Source of the DNA: Eubacteriales bacterium
Lineage (GTDB): Bacteria; Bacillota; Clostridia; Oscillospirales; CAG-272
NCBI GenBank assembly: GCA_051893885.1
Contig: JBJFHS010000250.1
Span: 1-39,181 of the forward strand
Length of the DNA stretch: 39,181 bases
Direction of reading: 5' to 3'
The notes under the pieces were generated by a model that worked only from the letters and a program-made list of their open reading frames with translations, had not been told where the DNA came from and ran no database searches. Shown here one piece after another: positions 1-26,531 of this stretch. Position 1 is the first letter of the stretch. Each line of letters begins with the position of its first letter. A program made the position numbers and the translations under genes.

Positions 1-53
1 ACCAACAACCTGCTGATTACAAATCAGCTGCTCTGCCATTGAGCCACACCAGC
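1..53 (-). tRNA. tRNA-Thr (anticodon UGU), 3' portion cut by the window edge
   Basis: The reverse complement reads GCTGGTG-TG-GCTC/AATGGCA/GAGC-A-GCTGA-TTTGTAA-TCAGC-AGGTT-GTTGG. This gives an acceptor stem, a D arm and an anticodon stem-loop with TGT at positions 34-36. The T arm is truncated at position 1. Confidence 0.8.
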
Positions 54-9760: not shown

Positions 9761-9831
9761 AGGCGACACCCGGAATCGGACCGGGGATGAAAGTTTTGCA
9801 GACTTCTGCCTTACCGCTTGGCTATGTCGCC
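9761..9831 (-). tRNA. tRNA-Cys (anticodon GCA)
   Basis: The reverse complement is GGCGACA-TA-GCC/AAGCGGTAA/GGC-A-GAAGT-CTGCAAA-ACTTT-CATC-CCCGG-TCCGATT-CCGGG-TGTCGCC-T. This folds as a full cloverleaf. CCA is not encoded. Confidence 0.9.
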
Positions 9832-17803: not shown

Positions 17804-18010
17804 CGGCTTTTCGGGATGAACAATAATAATTTTCGGTCAGCAGAATAAAGAGAAAACGGGGTTACTGCCGCTCGCAGCAATCTCGTTTTTCTTTAAACTT
17901 TGAAATACTCTTGACTTGTCAGATTTTTTCTTACATATAAATATGGACTAAACACGCGGAATATGTTAAAATATATCGTAAAAACATAAAATCAAAAAGG
18001 CAAAAACCAG

Positions 18011-20593
18011 ATGAAGAAAACTGTTGTCGGAATAATAGCCCACGTCGATGCCGGAAAAACCACACTGGCGGAGGCGATGCTCTACCGCGCTGGCAGAATC
18101 AAAAAACAGGGCAGAGTCGATAAGCGCGATACTTTCCTCGATACCCATGAAATAGAACGGGAGCGCGGAATTACAATATTTTCCAAAATGGCGCGGCTTA
18201 GCGTGGAGAAAAGCGTAATAATTCTGCTTGATACCCCCGGACACGTCGATTTTTCCGCGGAAACCGAGCGAAGCCTCTCCGTCCTCGACTGCGCAGTCCT
18301 CGTCATAAGCGGGAGCGAGGGAGTTCAGGCGCATACAGAAACTCTGTGGTCTCTCCTTGCCAAACATAGGATTCCAACCTTTATTTTCGTGACGAAAATG
18401 GACCTCGCGGGGAGCGACAGAAATTCGGTCATGCGTGAGCTGAAAAATTCATTCGGAGACGGCGCTGTGGATTTCGGAGCGGAGGACAGCGCAAAAAACG
18501 AGAGCATAGCACTCTGCGACGAAGCACTGTTTGAAAAATACCTCGCCTCCGGTGTGATCACAGATGAGGAAACTGCCTCGCTTATAGCAGACCGTCGCCT
18601 TTTTCCGTGCTTCTTCGGCAGCGGTTTAAAGCTCGACGGCGTTGACGACCTCCTGCGCGCGCTCGACAGCCTCACAAAAGAGAGAAATTACTCCGACAGC
18701 TTTGCAGCCAAAGTCTATAAAATAGCGCACGACCCCGGCGGAAACCGGCTCACTTATATGAAAATCACCGGCGGAGCTCTGTCAAACCGTCAGATTGTCG
18801 ATTATTCCGCCGACGGAGAGAATTTTTCGGAAAAAATAAGCGGCATACGGCTGTACTCCGGAGCGAAATTTGAAAGTGCGGAAAACGTGTGTGCGGGAGA
18901 GATATGCGCGGTCACTGGGCTGAGCAAAACCTTCGCCGGTCAGGGAATCGGAGGGGAAAAAGGTGAAGATGCGCCGAGCCTTGTCCCCGTCATGAGCTAT
19001 CGCATAAAGCTGCCGCCGGAGGTGTCTCCTGTTCTGTTTCTCCCGAAGCTGCGTGAGCTCGAGGAGGAAGAACCGCTGCTCGGAATCGTCTGGAACGAAC
19101 GCTTCGGCGAAATCCACGCTCAGATTATGGGTCAGGTGCAGACGGAGGTTCTTTCGCGCCTGATATCGGACAGGTTTTCGATAGATGTCGGGTTCGACGA
19201 CGGAAGAATCATGTATAAGGAAACCGTGACCGGGACGGCTGAGGGTGTGGGACATTTCGAGCCGCTGCGCCACTATGCAGAGGTGCATCTCAAAATTGAG
19301 CCGATGCCTCGCGGAAGCGGACTTGTGTTTGACGCCGATTGCGTTGAAAATACGCTCGATACAAACTGGCAGCGGCTGATTCTGACCCACCTCGAGGAAA
19401 AAACACACCTCGGAGTCATGACCGGCTCGCCGATTACGGATGCGAAAATCACTCTCGTCAGCGGAAGGGCGCATCTCAAGCACACACAGGGCGGCGATTT
19501 CCGTGAAGCAACCTACCGCGCGCTCAGACAGGGGCTGATGACTCTGCGCTCAATGGGAAAAACCGAGCTGCTCGAGCCGTATTACGCGTTCAGACTGGAG
19601 CTGCCCGGAGAGTATGTCGGCAGAGCAATATCGGACATCACCGCAAAGTTCGGAAGTATATCGGAGCATGAGGCGCGGGAGGAGCTTTCTTCCCTCACAG
19701 GACTGGTTCCGGTGTCCGAGATGAGCGAATACGCAAATGAGGTCGCGGCTTATACACACGGAAAGGGAAGACTCTCGCTGCACTTCGACGGCTTCTATCC
19801 CTGCCACAACACCGACGAGGTTGTCGAAAAATACGCATACGACCCGACAGCCGACATGGACAACACACCCGACAGCGTTTTCTGCTCACACGGCGCGGGC
19901 TTTATCGTTCCGTGGAATTCAGTTCCGCAGTATATGCACCTTGAAATGAGATTCGCCGAAAGCATAGACAATGATGCGCCGGAAGAAATTCCAAAGCCGA
20001 AGATTATCGAGAAAAACCTCAATATCGACGAAAAAGAGCTCGAGGCGATCATGGAGCGTGAGTTCGGCCCGATCCGACGCCCGGTCTACTCAGAGGCGAG
20101 AAAGCCGGTCATAGCAAACGAGCGGGCGAAAAAACCAAAAAAATCGCTGTATATCGTCGACGGGTATAACGTGATTTTCGCGTGGGATGAACTGGCAGCC
20201 ATCGCCGAATACGACCTTGAGGGTGCGAGAGTCAAGCTGTGCGATATTTTAGCCAACTATAAGGCGTTTACCGGGCGTGACATCATTCTGGTTTTCGATG
20301 CGTACAACGTAAAAGGAGCGGTTCGGCGGAAGCTTGACTATCACGGCCTTGCTGTCGTCTATACCAAGGAGGGCGAGCTCGGCGACACGTATATCGAAAA
20401 GCTCGTTTACGAAATCGGAGAGGATTTTTCAGTCCGCGTAATCACCTCCGACGCACTCATACAGCTTCAGGCACTGCGCTCGGGTGTACTCAGAATGTCT
20501 GCGAGGGAGTTCAGGGATGAGGTAATCAAAAACGACGCGGAGATTGAAAAAATACTGTTGAAGCTCAGTCAGAAGCCCCGCGAAAAAAAATAA
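18011..20593 (+). CDS. Fusion protein: TetM/EF-G-like translational GTPase (aa 1 to about 645) plus linker plus YacP/Rae1-type NYN ribonuclease domain (aa about 712-850)
   Basis: The GTPase motifs are G1 AHVDAGKT, RGITI, G3 DTPGH and G4 TKMD, and the body is collinear with Tet(M)/EF-G domains II-V. The C-terminus reads LYIVDGYNVIFAW...LVFDAYN...GDTYIEKL...ITSDALIQ, matching B. subtilis YacP/Rae1. The reading frame is uninterrupted. Confidence 0.85.
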   Translation: MKKTVVGIIAHVDAGKTTLAEAMLYRAGRIKKQGRVDKRDTFLDTHEIERERGITIFSKMARLSVEKSVIILLDTPGHVDFSAETERSLSVLDCAVLVISGSEGVQAHTETLWSLLAKHRIPTFIFVTKMDLAGSDRNSVMRELKNSFGDGAVDFGAEDSAKNESIALCDEALFEKYLASGVITDEETASLIADRRLFPCFFGSGLKLDGVDDLLRALDSLTKERNYSDSFAAKVYKIAHDPGGNRLTYMKITGGALSNRQIVDYSADGENFSEKISGIRLYSGAKFESAENVCAGEICAVTGLSKTFAGQGIGGEKGEDAPSLVPVMSYRIKLPPEVSPVLFLPKLRELEEEEPLLGIVWNERFGEIHAQIMGQVQTEVLSRLISDRFSIDVGFDDGRIMYKETVTGTAEGVGHFEPLRHYAEVHLKIEPMPRGSGLVFDADCVENTLDTNWQRLILTHLEEKTHLGVMTGSPITDAKITLVSGRAHLKHTQGGDFREATYRALRQGLMTLRSMGKTELLEPYYAFRLELPGEYVGRAISDITAKFGSISEHEAREELSSLTGLVPVSEMSEYANEVAAYTHGKGRLSLHFDGFYPCHNTDEVVEKYAYDPTADMDNTPDSVFCSHGAGFIVPWNSVPQYMHLEMRFAESIDNDAPEEIPKPKIIEKNLNIDEKELEAIMEREFGPIRRPVYSEARKPVIANERAKKPKKSLYIVDGYNVIFAWDELAAIAEYDLEGARVKLCDILANYKAFTGRDIILVFDAYNVKGAVRRKLDYHGLAVVYTKEGELGDTYIEKLVYEIGEDFSVRVITSDALIQLQALRSGVLRMSAREFRDEVIKNDAEIEKILLKLSQKPREKK

Positions 20594-20648: not shown

Positions 20649-21194
20649 ATGCTTGTTACAAAGGAGTACGACAGAATTCGGGCGGTGGAGTATGCTCGCA
20701 GGTGGGCGTTTGACCGAAGTCCGCTGTTCGAGAGCTACAACGGAATTGGAGGGGACTGCACTAATTTCGTTTCACAGTGTGTTTACGCCGGAAGCTGCGT
20801 CATGAATTTCACCCGCGATTTCGGATGGTATTACATATCCCCGACAAACCGCGCGCCCGCATGGACAGGTGTAGAGTTTTTCTATAATTTCATGACGGAA
20901 AACCGCGGTGTCGGCCCGTTTGCGAGAGAAACCTACCCGGGAGGTCTTGCACCGGGAGACGTAATCCAGCTCGGCACACTTGAGGGGGATTATTACCACA
21001 CTTTGCTGGTCACGGGAAGCGAGGGCGGGGTTTACCTTGTCGCCGCACACTCAAACGACGCACTCGACAGACCGCTCGACACATATGAGTACGACAGAGC
21101 CCGTTTTCTTAAAATAGAAGGGGTAAGAGCAGAATTTCCGGATGAAGCCTTCAGGGACTGCTTTGAGGATTTCTATAACGGAGAGGGTTTCTGA
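20649..21194 (+). CDS. Putative amidase-domain (Amidase_6 / NlpC-P60-like papain fold) protein, cytoplasmic
   Basis: It contains GGDCTNFVSQCVYAG (candidate nucleophile Cys) and later YHTLLV/AAHSND His motifs. It has no signal peptide. The RBS is GAGAGGGA. Confidence 0.65.
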   Translation: MLVTKEYDRIRAVEYARRWAFDRSPLFESYNGIGGDCTNFVSQCVYAGSCVMNFTRDFGWYYISPTNRAPAWTGVEFFYNFMTENRGVGPFARETYPGGLAPGDVIQLGTLEGDYYHTLLVTGSEGGVYLVAAHSNDALDRPLDTYEYDRARFLKIEGVRAEFPDEAFRDCFEDFYNGEGF

Positions 21195-21233: not shown

Positions 21234-21262
21234 TTGACAAAACGTTAAACCTGTGATAAAAT
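21234..21262 (+). promoter_or_regulatory. Sigma-A type promoter for tRNA-Ser
   Basis: TTGACA (21234-21239), exactly 17 nt, then TGaTAAAAT (21257-21262). Confidence 0.6.
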
Positions 21263-21309: not shown

Positions 21310-21398
21310 GCAGGGTTATCGAAGCGGTCATAACGAGGCGGTCTTGAAAACCGTTTGAGGGCAACCTCACGTGAGTTCGAATCTCACACCCTGCGCCA
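21310..21398 (+). tRNA. tRNA-Ser (anticodon UGA), class II with long variable arm, CCA encoded
   Basis: The sequence is GCAGGGT-TA-TCG/AAGCGGTCATAA/CGA-G-GCGGT-CTTGAAA-ACCGT-TTGAGGGCAACCTCAC-GTGAG-TTCGAAT-CTCAC-ACCCTGC-G-CCA. Confidence 0.9.
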
Positions 21399-21401
21399 CT
21401 G

Positions 21402-21439
21402 TGGAGTTGAAACTAAGGTTTTGACTCCATTTTTATTTT
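21402..21439 (+). terminator. Intrinsic terminator after tRNA-Ser
   Basis: TGGAGT (21402-21407) pairs with ACTCCA (21424-21429), with an inner AAAC/GTTT pairing. TTTTTATTTT follows. Confidence 0.75.
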
Positions 21440-22958: not shown

Positions 22959-24704
22959 TTAAAGTCCGCGCTTTACGTAATGTGTGTGGAGCAGCTCGTG
23001 AGCTTTGTGTGAGTTCGGCTCGCCGAGATATTCCTCGTAAACCTTCTTGATGATCGGGTTTTCGTGGGACTTTCTGTACTCGAGCTTTTCGGAATCCGCC
23101 TTGTAGAGAACGGACGCGCGGAGAGACTTGAGGTCCACATTGTTGCGAACGGACGCAGGCTGTGTGGGCTGACCGCCGCCGTTTACACATCCGCCGGGAC
23201 AAGCCATGATTTCGATGAACTGTACATCGTATGTGCCGTCCTGTACGCCGCGGAGGAGCTTGTTTGCGTTGGCTGTACCGGAAGCAACCGCAACCTTGAG
23301 CTCAATGTCGCCGATCTTGTACTTAGCAAACTTGATTCCCTCTGTTCCGCGTACTTCTTCAAAGTCAACCTTTTCAAGCGGCTTTCCTTCGATGACTTCC
23401 GCTGCGGTACGGAGAGCAGCCTCCATTACGCCGCCTGTTGCACCGAAGATTGCGCCGGCTCCGGAACCGATGTCGATAGGCTGGTCGAACTTTTCGTCCT
23501 CGAGAGACTTGAAGTCGATACCTGCCATCTCGATCATTCTGCCGAGCTCACGTGTGGTAACGGCGATGTCAACTCCGGGAAGTCCGTTTACGTCCTGACC
23601 GTCTCTGCCAACCTCGAACTTCTTGGCTGTGCAGGGGATAGCGGAAACGAATACGATATCCTCGGGGTTCAGACCCATCTTTTCTGCGAAATAGGTCTTG
23701 TAAATCGCACCGAACATCTGCTGAGGAGACTTGCAGGTTGAGAGGTTTTCAGTCATTTCGGGGAAGTAGTGTTCGCAGTACTTGACCCATCCGGGTGAGC
23801 AGGAGGTGATCATCGGGAGTGCGCCGCCGTTCTTTACTCTGCCGATGAATTCGTTAGCTTCTTCCATGATTGTCAGGTCAGCCGTGAAGTTCATGTCGTA
23901 TACGCCGTCGAATCCGAGCTTCTTGAGAGCAGCAACCATCTTGCCTTCTGTGTCTGTGCCGGGTTCATAGCCGAAGCATTCGCCGATTGTAGCACGAACG
24001 GAAGGAGCGCAGCAGATTGCAACGTGCTTTGTGGGGTCGGAGATGGCGTCGAAGATCTTCTGTGTGTCGTCTCTTTCGTAGAGAGCACCGACAGGGCAGG
24101 CGACGATGCACTGACCGCAGTTGATGCAGGAGGTCTCTGCAAGGGGTTTTTCAAACGCACATTCAATTTTTGCGTCATAGCCGCGGTTTGCGGTTCCGAT
24201 AGCGCCGATGCCCTGGAGCTTGTTGCAGGCAGCTACGCAGCGGCGGCAGAGGATACATTTGGACGAGTCTCTGATGATGGAGACGGAGGAGTCGTCGATG
24301 TCAGCCGTTGTGGGCTTCTGTGAGTAGCAGAAACGGTCCTCGTCAACCTTGTATTCCTGAGCGAGCTTCTGGAGTTCGCAGGTAGTGGAGCGGATACAGG
24401 TGAGACATTTCTTGTTGTGAGCGGAGAGAACGAGCTCGAGGTTTGTCTTTCTGACCTGTCTGATTTTGGGGGTGTTAGTCTGAATCTCCATGCCCTCGTT
24501 TACGGGGTACACGCAGGAGGCAACAAGACCTCTCGCGCCCTTGACCTCAACAAGGCAGAGACGGCACGCGCCGATCTGGTTGATGTCCTTGAGGTAGCAG
24601 AGAGTGGGGATGTCGATATTCGCGTACTTGCAGGCTTCGAGAACGGTAATGCCCGCCGGAACGGAATAATCGGCGCCGTTTATTTTTACATTTACCATAT
24701 CCAT
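22959..24704 (-). CDS. hydA: [FeFe]-hydrogenase catalytic subunit HydA of a HydABC/Hnd-type (NuoE/F-linked) enzyme
   Basis: It has an N-terminal 2Fe-2S ferredoxin fold, NuoG-like clusters and two 4Fe-4S motifs. The H-cluster motifs are TSCSPGW, IPCTAKKFE and EIMACPGGCVNGGGQP. The start is ambiguous (TTG 24728, TTG 24713 or ATG 24704). Confidence 0.9.
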   Translation of the reverse strand: MDMVNVKINGADYSVPAGITVLEACKYANIDIPTLCYLKDINQIGACRLCLVEVKGARGLVASCVYPVNEGMEIQTNTPKIRQVRKTNLELVLSAHNKKCLTCIRSTTCELQKLAQEYKVDEDRFCYSQKPTTADIDDSSVSIIRDSSKCILCRRCVAACNKLQGIGAIGTANRGYDAKIECAFEKPLAETSCINCGQCIVACPVGALYERDDTQKIFDAISDPTKHVAICCAPSVRATIGECFGYEPGTDTEGKMVAALKKLGFDGVYDMNFTADLTIMEEANEFIGRVKNGGALPMITSCSPGWVKYCEHYFPEMTENLSTCKSPQQMFGAIYKTYFAEKMGLNPEDIVFVSAIPCTAKKFEVGRDGQDVNGLPGVDIAVTTRELGRMIEMAGIDFKSLEDEKFDQPIDIGSGAGAIFGATGGVMEAALRTAAEVIEGKPLEKVDFEEVRGTEGIKFAKYKIGDIELKVAVASGTANANKLLRGVQDGTYDVQFIEIMACPGGCVNGGGQPTQPASVRNNVDLKSLRASVLYKADSEKLEYRKSHENPIIKKVYEEYLGEPNSHKAHELLHTHYVKRGL

Positions 24705-24728
24705 ATTGTTCAATTCCGACCCTTTCAA

Positions 24729-26531
24729 TTATTTCTTAGAGATAGCGCCAAACTTACACTTTTCAATACAAGCTCCGCACTTTACGCACTTTTCCTTATC
24801 GATAACGTGAGCTTCCTTAACCTTACCGCTGATAGCACCAGCCGGGCAGTTTCTCGCGCAGAGAGTACATCCGCGGCACTTGTCGGGATCGATTTCGTAG
24901 GAGAGAAGCTTCTTGCAGACGCCTGCGGGGCACTTCTTGTCGACGATGTGTGCGATATATTCGTCGCGGAAGAAGTGGAGAGTGGAGAGAATCGGGTTGG
25001 GCGCTGTCTGACCGAGTGCGCAGAGAGAAGCGGACTTTATGTAGTTAGCCAGTTCTTCAAGCTTGTCAAGGTCTTCCATTTCGCCGTTGCCGGATGTAAT
25101 CTTGTTGAGTATCTCGAGAAGTCTTACCGTACCGATACGGCAGGGAGAGCACTTACCGCAGGATTCGTCGACTGTGAACTCGAGGAAGAATTTAGCGATA
25201 TCGACCATACAGGTGTCCTCGTCCATTACGATAAGACCGCCGGAACCCATCATGCAGCCGATTTTTGTGAGGTTGTCAAAGTCGATAGGTGTGTCGATGA
25301 GGGAAGCGGGGATACATCCGCCGGAAGGACCGCCTGTCTGAGCAGCCTTGAACTTCTTTCCGTTCGGTACGCCGCCGCCGATTTCCTCGACGATTTCACG
25401 GAGCGTTGTACCCATCGGAATTTCAACGAGACCTGTGTTCTTGATCTTGCCGCCGAGAGCGAATACCTTAGTACCCTTTGAACCCTCAGTACCCATGGAA
25501 GCGAACCAGTCCGCACCCTTGAGGATGATCTGAGCGACGTTAGCGAGGGTTTCAACGTTGTTTACGATGGTAGGCTGACCCCAGAGACCCTTGACTGCCG
25601 GGAACGGAGGACGGGGACGGGGTTCGCCGCGGTTGCCTTCGATGGAGGTGAGAAGAGCTGTTTCTTCACCGCATACGAACGCGCCGGCGCCGAGTCTGAT
25701 GTGAATATCGAAGTTGAAGCCTGTTCCGAAGATATCCTTGCCGAGCAGACCGTATTCTCTCGCCTGTTCGATAGCGATGTTGAGTCTCTTTACGGCGATA
25801 GGATACTCAGCGCGGACGTAGATCCAACCCTCGTCAGCTCCGATAGCGTAGCCGGCGATAGCCATAGCTTCGAGAACGGAGTGCGGGTCGCCTTCGAGAA
25901 CGGAACGGTCCATGAACGCACCCGGGTCGCCCTCGTCGGCGTTACATACGACGTATTTTTTGTCGGAAACGGAAGCGCGTGCGAACTGCCACTTGCGTCC
26001 TGTCGGGAATCCGCCGCCGCCTCTGCCTCTTAGTCCTGAGTCGAGGATGGTCTTGATTACGTCTTCGGGAGTCATTTCCTTGAGGACCTTGGCGAGTGCA
26101 AAGTAACCGTCCATTGCGATGTACTCGTCGATAACTTCGGGGTTGATAACACCGCAGTTACGGAGAGCGACTCTCTTCTGCTTCTTGTAGAATGCGGTCT
26201 GGTTGAGGGATGCGGCAACTGCTTCTTCCTCGCCCTTTGTGTCTCCGGTTTCATTGTATACAAGGCGTTCGACGATACGGCCCTTGAGGAGGTGTTCGGA
26301 TACGATTTCGGGGATATCCTCGGGAGTTACTCTTGAATAGAAGGTTCCTTCGGGATAGATAATCATAATCGGACCGAGTGCGCAGAGACCGAAGCAGCCC
26401 GTCTGGACTATTTTGACCTCCTCCTCAAGTCCTTTTATCTTAAGCTCATCGGCGAGCTTTTCACGGATGGCACGGCTGCCAGAGGAAGTACATCCCGTAC
26501 CGCCGCACACCAATACATGAGAACGAATCAT
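24729..26531 (-). CDS. hydB: HydB, NuoF-like flavoprotein subunit (NAD(P)H/FMN-binding) with Trx-like 2Fe-2S N-domain and C-terminal 2x[4Fe-4S]
   Basis: It contains GRGGGGFPTGRKW (FMN site), ESCGKCSPCR, and the C-terminal CRGCTLCARNCP and CVKCGACIEKC motifs. The RBS is AGGAGGA. Confidence 0.9.
   Translation of the reverse strand: MIRSHVLVCGGTGCTSSGSRAIREKLADELKIKGLEEEVKIVQTGCFGLCALGPIMIIYPEGTFYSRVTPEDIPEIVSEHLLKGRIVERLVYNETGDTKGEEEAVAASLNQTAFYKKQKRVALRNCGVINPEVIDEYIAMDGYFALAKVLKEMTPEDVIKTILDSGLRGRGGGGFPTGRKWQFARASVSDKKYVVCNADEGDPGAFMDRSVLEGDPHSVLEAMAIAGYAIGADEGWIYVRAEYPIAVKRLNIAIEQAREYGLLGKDIFGTGFNFDIHIRLGAGAFVCGEETALLTSIEGNRGEPRPRPPFPAVKGLWGQPTIVNNVETLANVAQIILKGADWFASMGTEGSKGTKVFALGGKIKNTGLVEIPMGTTLREIVEEIGGGVPNGKKFKAAQTGGPSGGCIPASLIDTPIDFDNLTKIGCMMGSGGLIVMDEDTCMVDIAKFFLEFTVDESCGKCSPCRIGTVRLLEILNKITSGNGEMEDLDKLEELANYIKSASLCALGQTAPNPILSTLHFFRDEYIAHIVDKKCPAGVCKKLLSYEIDPDKCRGCTLCARNCPAGAISGKVKEAHVIDKEKCVKCGACIEKCKFGAISKK

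Follow-up and report, generated by a model that had tools for sequence, protein, structure and literature searches.

A clostridial translational GTPase fused to a Rae1-type NYN_YacP domain, a possible ribosome-docked mRNA endonuclease

Rae1 (YacP) of Bacillus subtilis is a free protein of 170 amino acids, encoded after rlmB, whose cleavage depends on translation. The translational GTPases EF-G and TetM, for their part, carry a domain IV that reaches the decoding centre of the ribosome. Proteins that join the two kinds of module in one chain have appeared in two computational surveys: Atkinson 2015 (PMC4342817) gave ten clostridial examples, with cultured hosts such as C. thermocellum, C. cellulolyticum, E. 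rectale, R. albus and D. hafniense, and Matelska et al. 2017 (PMC5499597) wrote of ‘TetM-NYN_YacP fusion proteins’. Here we analyse a gene of this architecture at 18011..20593 (+ strand) of contig JBJFHS010000250.1 from an Eubacteriales metagenome-assembled genome (GCA_051893885.1); the whole stretch of 39,181 nucleotides is referred to as the window. A first-pass annotation of the window, made from the sequence alone, had described the fusion; as the two surveys show, the architecture had not gone unnoticed before.

The gene starts with ATG and, as first described, runs as a single uninterrupted frame of 860 codons. Its product carries an EF-G-fold GTPase body, a flexible linker and a C-terminal nuclease domain, both with intact catalytic residues. 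Our preferred reading, to which we give about even weight, is that it encodes a GTPase-docked, tethered, no-go-type mRNA endonuclease acting at the ribosome. On this view the gene, which is chromosomal, would serve housekeeping or quality control in anaerobic Clostridia and would not be a determinant of tetracycline resistance.

The nuclease domain (aa 711-858; 20141..20584, +) is assigned to the NYN_YacP/Rae1 family on the basis of its profile score, active site and predicted fold. Pfam NYN_YacP (PF05991) matches aa 715-855 with an E value of 1.2e-41 (143 bits against a cutoff of 24.6). When the last 185 residues were compared with the PDB, only one solved family was recovered, that of B. subtilis YacP/Rae1 (5mq8/5mq9; E 3e-22), with ~35-40% identity over ~146 residues. 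In an AlphaFold model of aa 596-860 the domain reaches pLDDT values of ~85-94, and Foldseek ranks Rae1 (5mq9_A) as the best structural match by a wide margin (E 5.7e-12, TM 0.78, rmsd 2.9 Å, 147 columns), with all other PDB neighbours at E >= 1e-3. The Pfam, PDB and Foldseek matches concur with the alignment to YacP/Rae1 that had first been drawn by eye.

The active site is preserved in full. A HMMER alignment pairs D7, D53, D81 and D104 of Rae1 with D717, D763, D792 and D814, the four acidic positions already picked out in the first-pass annotation. For all conservation counts we used 84 divergent fused representatives taken from 50%-identity clusters, and D717, Y719, N720, D763, D792 and D814 are each kept in 84/84; the motifs DGYN, VFD(A/G/S)Y, TAD and SD persist through the family. 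Matelska 2017 (PMC5499597) took a GYN motif after the first Asp, together with four active-site Asp, as the mark of the family, and this is the arrangement found here (D717-G-Y-N and the four Asp). D717 and D763 had been put forward as the pair to mutate; the published catalytic mutant of Rae1 is D7N D81N (PMC10351889), which corresponds to D717/D792. The final ~22 residues of Rae1 are unmatched in our protein. Whereas Rae1 is free-standing, the domain described here forms the C-terminus of an 860-residue GTPase, following a conserved linker motif. The gene also lies outside the typical setting of the single-domain form, the operon cysS-mrnC-rlmB-yacP, which is seen in B. subtilis and in A. 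noterae, the latter having only a free yacP.

The remainder of the protein has the five-domain architecture of EF-G/EF2-family translational GTPases. The G domain (aa 5-222; 18023..18676, +) matches Pfam GTP_EFTU with an E value of 1.7e-51 and has a short G' region, and domain II (aa 231-308; 18701..18934, +) matches EF-G_D2 and is modelled as a beta-barrel. Domain III (aa ~311-397; 18941..19201, +) adopts an alpha/beta fold in the model; the Pfam search of our protein gives no match there, although EFG_III (PF14492) is recorded for many homologues. Domain IV (aa 398-510; 19202..19540, +) matches EFG_IV, and domain V (aa 519-600; 19565..19810, +) matches EFG_C (E 2.7e-17). The full-length AlphaFold model (mean pLDDT 80.4) shows the five-domain EF-G fold, followed by a folded extension of 50 residues, a disordered stretch at 651-710 with one helix, and the nuclease. 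Its top Foldseek matches are EF-G structures (E ~1e-52, ~690 columns aligned).

The GTPase centre is likewise intact, and its motifs are complete in every family member examined. The motifs listed in the first-pass annotation can be read in the translation (G1 AHVDAGKT, G2 RGITI, G3 DTPGH with the catalytic His78, and G4 TKMD), as can GSGLK. All 84 of the 84 representatives have the P-loop Asp and Lys, T55, D74, K129 and D131, and all but one have H78 (83/84). The G4 motif, usually NKxD, is TKMD in the lineage of the query and NKMD across most of the family; its first residue (aa 128, nt 18392-18394) is N in 74 representatives, T in 5 and S in 5. Since the Lys and Asp of G4 are invariant, guanine specificity is probably kept despite this change. 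Domain IV is the most conserved region of the protein (mean column conservation 0.69; the remaining folded regions lie at 0.47-0.59 and the linker at 0.29). Its loops are invariant, rich in His, Lys and Arg, and specific to the family (GHFEPLRHYAEV at aa 414-425, GRAHLKHTQGGDFR at aa 485-498), and H415, P418, H491 and D496 are kept in 84/84.

Like the ribosomal protection proteins Tet(M) and Tet(O), the body is an EF-G-like GTPase of five domains and comparable length, with a short G' region. A single collinear alignment spans aa 4-598 of our protein and 4-613 of TetO/TetM. The best NCBIfam model is tet_protect, which scores 400 bits where its cutoff is 775. The more specific models score far lower still against their cutoffs: Otr(A) 298/900, M/W/O/S 270/1100, Tet(Q) 248/1425 and Tet(M) 223/1420. 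Identity amounts to 28-29% with Tet(M)/(O)/(S) and 30.7% with TetB(P). The earlier description of the body as TetM/EF-G-like therefore stands as regards its collinearity with TetO/TetM, but ‘TetM-like’ applies only loosely to a protein with ~28% identity that falls below every cutoff. The model for EF-G proper (fusA, TIGR00484) likewise gives 254.7 bits against 659.4, and other EF-G models are also under cutoff.

In TetM, loop III of domain IV is Y506-Y507-S508-P509-V510. An explicit alignment shows that the loop GLYYSPVSTPADF of TetM/TetO/TetB(P) is GRAHLKHTQGGDF in the query family. At this same domain IV site, TetM, TetO and TetB(P) follow the pattern G(L/E)(Y/F)(Y/F)SP(V/M)STPADF and the fusion family GRAHxKHTEGGDF. 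The loop HIEVPPNPFWAS of the Tet proteins gives way to GHFE--PLRHYAEV, and the domain IV loops of the family differ from both HIEVPPNPFWAS and GLYYSPVSTPADFR of TetM. Contact with the tetracycline site is made by loop III (Donhofer 2012 and Li 2013, both cited in PMC4342817). In our protein, neither loop III (YSPVS) nor loop I of TetM is present. It further differs from Tet(M)/Tet(O) in its longer, folded and distinct C-terminal extension, in its nuclease, and in a non-mobile chromosomal context.

By sequence, domains IV-V are nearer to EF-G of T. thermophilus (78 bits) than to TetO/TetM (59/57.6 bits), and a His is kept at the EF-G loop position (GSYH in EF-G, GRAH here). The differences from EF-G lie in a domain IV loop I that is four residues shorter and a G' region that is much shorter. 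Because the Tet and EF-G cutoffs are failed, the domain IV loops are replaced and the extension is family-specific, we assign the body, on sequence grounds, to a distinct translational GTPase family, related to yet separate from the resistance proteins.

The C-terminal extension (aa 601-650; 19811..19960, +) carries the motif GY.PCHN..EV....YDPE.D.EN.PDSVFC.HGAG..VPW..VP.YMH and is folded in the AlphaFold model, with a hairpin at 622-633. The region comprising extension and linker (aa 596-714) matches no Pfam family, even at E<=10. Several Cys and His residues in and around the extension (aa 598-643, nt ~19802-19939) are largely kept: C598 in 78/84 representatives, C625 in 81/84, H627 in 70/84 and H643 in 82/84. 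Judged by this conservation, they could form a metal (zinc) site.

The extension is joined to the nuclease by a flexible linker (aa 651-710; 19961..20140, +), which is poorly conserved and predicted to be disordered in both AlphaFold models (full length and aa 596-860), with pLDDT <50 at aa 651-672 and 684-707. The charged, Pro/Lys-rich linker of the first-pass annotation is thus real and disordered, but its composition (11 E, 9 K, 8 I and 7 P among 67 residues) is Glu/Lys/Ile/Pro-rich rather than simply Pro/Lys-rich. Within it lies a short helix or linear motif, DEKELEAIMEREFGPIRRPVY (aa 673-693; 20027..20089, +), whose conserved helix DEKELEAIMEREFGP is modelled at 674-685 in both predictions. 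Among 74 close relatives L677, M681, R683-P687 and Y693 are invariant, and the motif is recognisable family-wide, also in the sequences of Atkinson. It could be a docking peptide.

The fusion is widespread. All of the 120 best database clusters (61-89% identity; 844-900 aa save two fragments) share the Pfam architecture. A search with the C-terminal 265 residues against one representative per 50%-identity cluster of ~15 billion proteins returned 2988 matches at E<=1e-3. Of these, 306 reach E<=1e-30, and the 150 highest-ranking are fused proteins (830-1069 aa) or fragments of such. We also scanned one genome per species for the extension peptide [ED]N[TP][PA][DQ]SVFC, building the scan on a 7-sequence subset because a 19-sequence alignment proved too diverse. 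At least 599 matches resulted, and with 596 of these confirmed, at least 596 species genomes have the extension. Of the best 80 scan loci, 73 are single fused ORFs; a survey of fused versus split forms had been suggested in the first-pass annotation. Closed genomes of cultured bacteria with the fusion include those of Monoglobus pectinilyticus and Agathobacter rectalis (51% and 45% identical).

The fusion family is therefore large, with hundreds of 50%-identity clusters and at least 596 species. The fusion is old and common, its distribution is broadly vertical, and it is abundant in gut and rumen Clostridia. Because the Pfam, PDB and Foldseek results concur and the active sites are invariant or nearly so in the 84 representatives, both modules are taken to be bona fide and under selection together. 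As a clostridial single chain with an N-terminal Tet-like GTPase and a C-terminal NYN_YacP domain, the query belongs to the TetM-like-NYN_YacP fusion family (Atkinson 2015; Matelska 2017); the published examples share with it the motifs GHFEPLRHYAEVHL, GRAHxKHTEGGDFR, DSVFC.HG and LLVDGYN. What we add to those surveys is that the body is not that of a ribosomal protection protein but represents a family of its own, whose unfused members occur in Lactobacillaceae, Bifidobacterium and some Clostridia. Also new are the size of the family, the universal retention of its active sites and the disordered tether with its conserved motif.

A few occurrences fall outside this distribution. One fused gene, closely similar to those in Faecousia/Oscillospiraceae metagenome-assembled genomes, lies on a 6-kb contig of a metagenome-assembled genome labelled uncultured Spirochaetaceae (locus L072); it probably reflects a binning error and not a true occurrence beyond Bacillota. 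Two unannotated contigs from human faeces, filed as ‘Bacteriophage sp.’, encode extension, linker and NYN domain at 40-42% identity (MT835563.1, 7212-8009; MT835514.1, 17022-17759); we regard them as misfiled bacterial contigs or prophage-flanking DNA.

The GTPase family also has members that end directly after the extension. These unfused proteins, named ‘translation factor GTPase family protein’, occur on megaplasmids of Ligilactobacillus salivarius and in Pediococcus, Companilactobacillus, Bifidobacterium and Subdoligranulum. They share the C-terminal extension and 42-49% identity over aa 1-645 with the fusion (~48.5% for a 644-aa L. salivarius megaplasmid protein, 42.6% for that of Subdoligranulum variabile). 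Their domain IV loops are identical in Subdoligranulum, and the second loop of L. salivarius is GKASNVHTVGGDFRQA. On these sequence features we count them as true members of the GTPase family. No NYN gene lies within 6 kb of them, so that a split GTPase-nuclease pair was not found near unfused members; the 6-kb surroundings of the other family members examined are likewise free of any stand-alone NYN gene. In a neighbour-joining tree of the body, which has no support values and a sampling that favours fused proteins, the unfused members fall inside fused clades; this hints at secondary loss of the nuclease, although we do not rely on the tree. On L. salivarius pHN3 (L009, 5403-7920) the unfused orthologue is divergent from an extra copy of rpsN (S14) and a gene for a 35-aa ‘putative metal homeostasis protein’. 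These neighbours hint at a zinc-limitation regulon; the rpsN adjacency recurs in no other locus examined.

From these features we infer ribosome binding, an mRNA substrate, recognition of a particular ribosome state, the position of the cut and a link to tmRNA. In the mechanism that we propose, the N-terminal 650 residues would act as an EF-G-fold GTPase that binds the ribosomal factor site and pushes the conserved tip of domain IV towards the decoding centre. The GTPase would thereby sense the state of the ribosome, which may have stalled with its A site accessible or have been caught in a collision. The NYN nuclease, kept at high local concentration by its ~60-residue tether, would cut the mRNA where it meets the edge of this ribosome or of the adjacent one. 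The shortened message would then be cleared and the ribosomes freed by trans-translation, as for free Rae1 in B. subtilis, and GTP hydrolysis would release or reset the factor.

The geometry of such a complex would be as follows. Within one ribosome, the mRNA entry channel (uS3/uS4/uS5) is closer to the factor site than the exit is. In a disome, the trailing ribosome is described as trapped in a rotated, pre-translocation state, which is the natural substrate of EF-G. Binding to the trailing ribosome would set the nuclease beside the mRNA entry of that ribosome, that is, at the tail of the stalled one. The nuclease would then be correctly placed, because the entry of the trailing ribosome abuts the tail of the stalled ribosome, where Rae1 cuts. 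By a rough estimate, ~60 disordered residues have a contour length of ~200 Å, ample either way. The reported cut site of Rae1 is the 5' tail of the stalled ribosome, and Rae1 generates tmRNA substrates on collided ribosomes (preprint PMC13622287). The idea that the GTPase delivers or licenses the nuclease had been advanced from the sequence. It is reasonable and borne out in part, in that the two modules do form one protein, their catalytic centres are both kept and the flexible tether fits such a role; its premise of Rae1 action in the A site is outdated, having been revised by the discoverers of Rae1 themselves.

The same logic, a sensor of ribosome state coupled to an endonuclease or NTPase, is seen in SmrB of E. 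coli, Cue2/NONU-1 of eukaryotes, MutS2/RqcU of B. subtilis and Hbs1-Dom34. The folds of these collision and no-go factors are nevertheless unrelated to those described here (SMR versus NYN; ABC ATPase versus translational GTPase). Outside the fusion family itself, we came across no report of a translational GTPase covalently joined to such a nuclease.

A wider ‘Rosetta stone’ reading, which we entertain tentatively and consider doubtful, would extend the proposed role to the whole GTPase family. Fused or free, the GTPase would be the dedicated sensor of stalled or collided ribosomes in a bacterial, GTP-gated no-go decay, licensing a Rae1-type nuclease to cut the mRNA between ribosomes. With the tip of domain IV it would probe the decoding centre when a ribosome is unable to translocate, and the free GTPase of Lactobacillaceae and Bifidobacterium would work with free Rae1 or alone.

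Several points weigh against the docked-endonuclease model. No ribosome-bound structure of Rae1 exists and its binding is transient (PMC13622287), so the geometry is conjectural. The factor site and the reported Rae1 cut site lie on different faces of one ribosome; for the model to work, the tether would have to reach far or the factor would have to bind the trailing ribosome. Members of the GTPase family also occur without the nuclease (Lactobacillaceae, Bifidobacterium, Subdoligranulum), and many Rae1-bearing bacteria appear to lack the GTPase; a Listeria chromosome listed in PLSDB, for example, offers no better match to the body than one of 28% identity. Since GTPase and Rae1 each occur alone, neither partner strictly needs the other. 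Finally, full-text literature searches found no experimental study of any family member, in agreement with what the first-pass annotation had stated.

The genomic surroundings of the fused gene are chromosomal and vary between relatives, without mobile or resistance genes. In the window, azlC, azlD and a gene for a DUF308 membrane protein lie upstream, and an Amidase_6 gene and a tRNA gene downstream; beyond these are convergent alpha-galactosidase and [FeFe]-hydrogenase genes. The GC content of the fusion gene resembles that of its neighbours. A promoter-like site, TGGACT-17-TAAAAT with a TG extension (17944..17972, +), lies 39 nt 5' of the start codon, the assignment being a consensus match only. 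No leader-peptide ORF, RNA element or riboswitch was found upstream, Rfam reporting only tRNAs over the whole window; the tet(M) locus, in contrast, has a leader peptide. The gene looks like an independently transcribed core gene.

Two downstream genes were considered as operon partners and rejected. The Amidase_6 (PF12671) gene (20649-21194, +) directly follows the fusion on the same strand, and this adjacency is also seen in the closest relatives (loci L003 8753-9298, L005 8641-9174, L016, L017, L019 and L034). Beyond the window and three relatives, the arrangement is rare, recurring in only 4/73 genome loci. A predicted membrane protein of ~130 aa is encoded 3' of the fusion on the same strand in 20/73 fused loci, all of one relative group (e.g. 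L042 6889-7491, +). Both look like lineage synteny and not like functional links, and for the Amidase_6 gene synteny is the probable explanation.

Other features of the window and of related loci are given here for completeness. In A. rectalis (L008, 5307-5815), a BrnT toxin and BrnA (CopG-family) antitoxin pair lies directly 5' of the fused gene in divergent orientation, in this one genome only. Rfam places tRNA genes in the window at 21310-21395 (+), 9761-9831 (-) and 1-53 (-). The 86-nt tRNA at 21310 is preceded by the best promoter-like site of the region (TTGACA-17-TAAAAT, 21234-21262) and followed by a terminator-like hairpin (21401-21430). On the minus strand, 22959-26531 encodes an [FeFe]-hydrogenase large subunit with N-terminal ferredoxin-like domains, adjoining a NuoF-like flavoprotein gene. 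Such a HydA/HydB pair is the usual arrangement in the electron-bifurcating hydrogenases that anaerobic Clostridia possess.

Among the other explanations, a role in ribosome biogenesis or quality control fares best, though we judge it unlikely. Here the GTPase would test the ribosome or pre-ribosome in a step resembling translation, and the NYN domain would cut rRNA, for maturation or decay, or tRNA, by analogy with the eukaryotic PIN nuclease Nob1 and its partner GTPase eIF5B. Free yacP sits in its conserved operon beside genes that process and modify rRNA, NYN and PIN domains commonly process structured RNAs, and a GTPase at the factor site would put the nuclease close to rRNA. All experimentally defined substrates of Rae1 are, however, translated mRNAs, whose cleavage depends on reading frame and stalling. 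The fused gene, moreover, is no longer part of the operon with rRNA-processing genes, and its loci showed no conserved neighbour with a role in biogenesis.

Alternatively, the protein might be a conditional effector of growth arrest or defence that cleaves bulk mRNA or rRNA on ribosomes under stress or phage attack. Ribosome-dependent RNases such as RelE act in this way, and the BrnT/BrnA pair adjoins the gene in A. rectalis. The Rae1 preprint also speculates on defence against foreign mRNA (PMC13622287). The loci argue otherwise, and we consider this quite improbable: the gene is single-copy and broadly vertical in distribution, its neighbours are not defence islands, and no conserved antitoxin-like or immunity partner accompanies it. 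PADLOC returned no defence match, giving only a weak similarity of the G domain to the LeoA GTPase model (E 4e-4, 17.6 bits), and fused-family sequence occurs on just the two unannotated ‘phage’ contigs.

It is very improbable that the protein is a tetracycline ribosomal protection protein that gained an accessory RNase, as in the suggestion of novel resistance by Atkinson in 2015. In favour of it are the tet_protect hit, the collinearity with TetO/TetM and the placement of the fusion in the Tet subfamily by the HMMs of Atkinson (PMC4342817), as well as the names of several homologues, which NCBI calls ‘TetM/TetW/TetO/TetS family tetracycline resistance ribosomal protection protein’. But the tet_protect score, like that of every specific Tet model, is far under cutoff, identity to the Tet proteins is low, and domains IV-V are closer to EF-G. 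The drug-dislodging loop of domain IV, GLYYSPVSTPADF, is replaced by a family-invariant sequence, and the core-chromosome contexts are variable and without transposon or leader-peptide features. The idea that two adjacent genes were merged into one ORF by sequencing or assembly error, for which the metagenomic origin of the window might speak, is refuted by comparison, because the same continuous ORF recurs in independent assemblies by the hundred, and closed genomes from cultured species have it too.

The tetracycline-resistance annotation of many family members is thus probably wrong, and such labels inflate resistome counts in microbiome surveys. That automated pipelines would mislabel the protein had been predicted, and this is so for the several homologues just mentioned; the protein of the window itself is entered as ‘MAG: NYN domain-containing protein [Eubacteriales bacterium]’. 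The fusion also offers a practical handle, in that non-hydrolysable GTP analogues or trapping of the fusidic-acid kind could hold it in place on the ribosome for cryo-EM. Genetically tractable species with the gene include C. thermocellum, C. cellulolyticum and E. rectale. The fusion also offers a testable hypothesis for how a Rae1-type nuclease, whose association with ribosomes is transient in the case of Rae1 itself (PMC13622287), may be brought to stalled or collided ribosomes.

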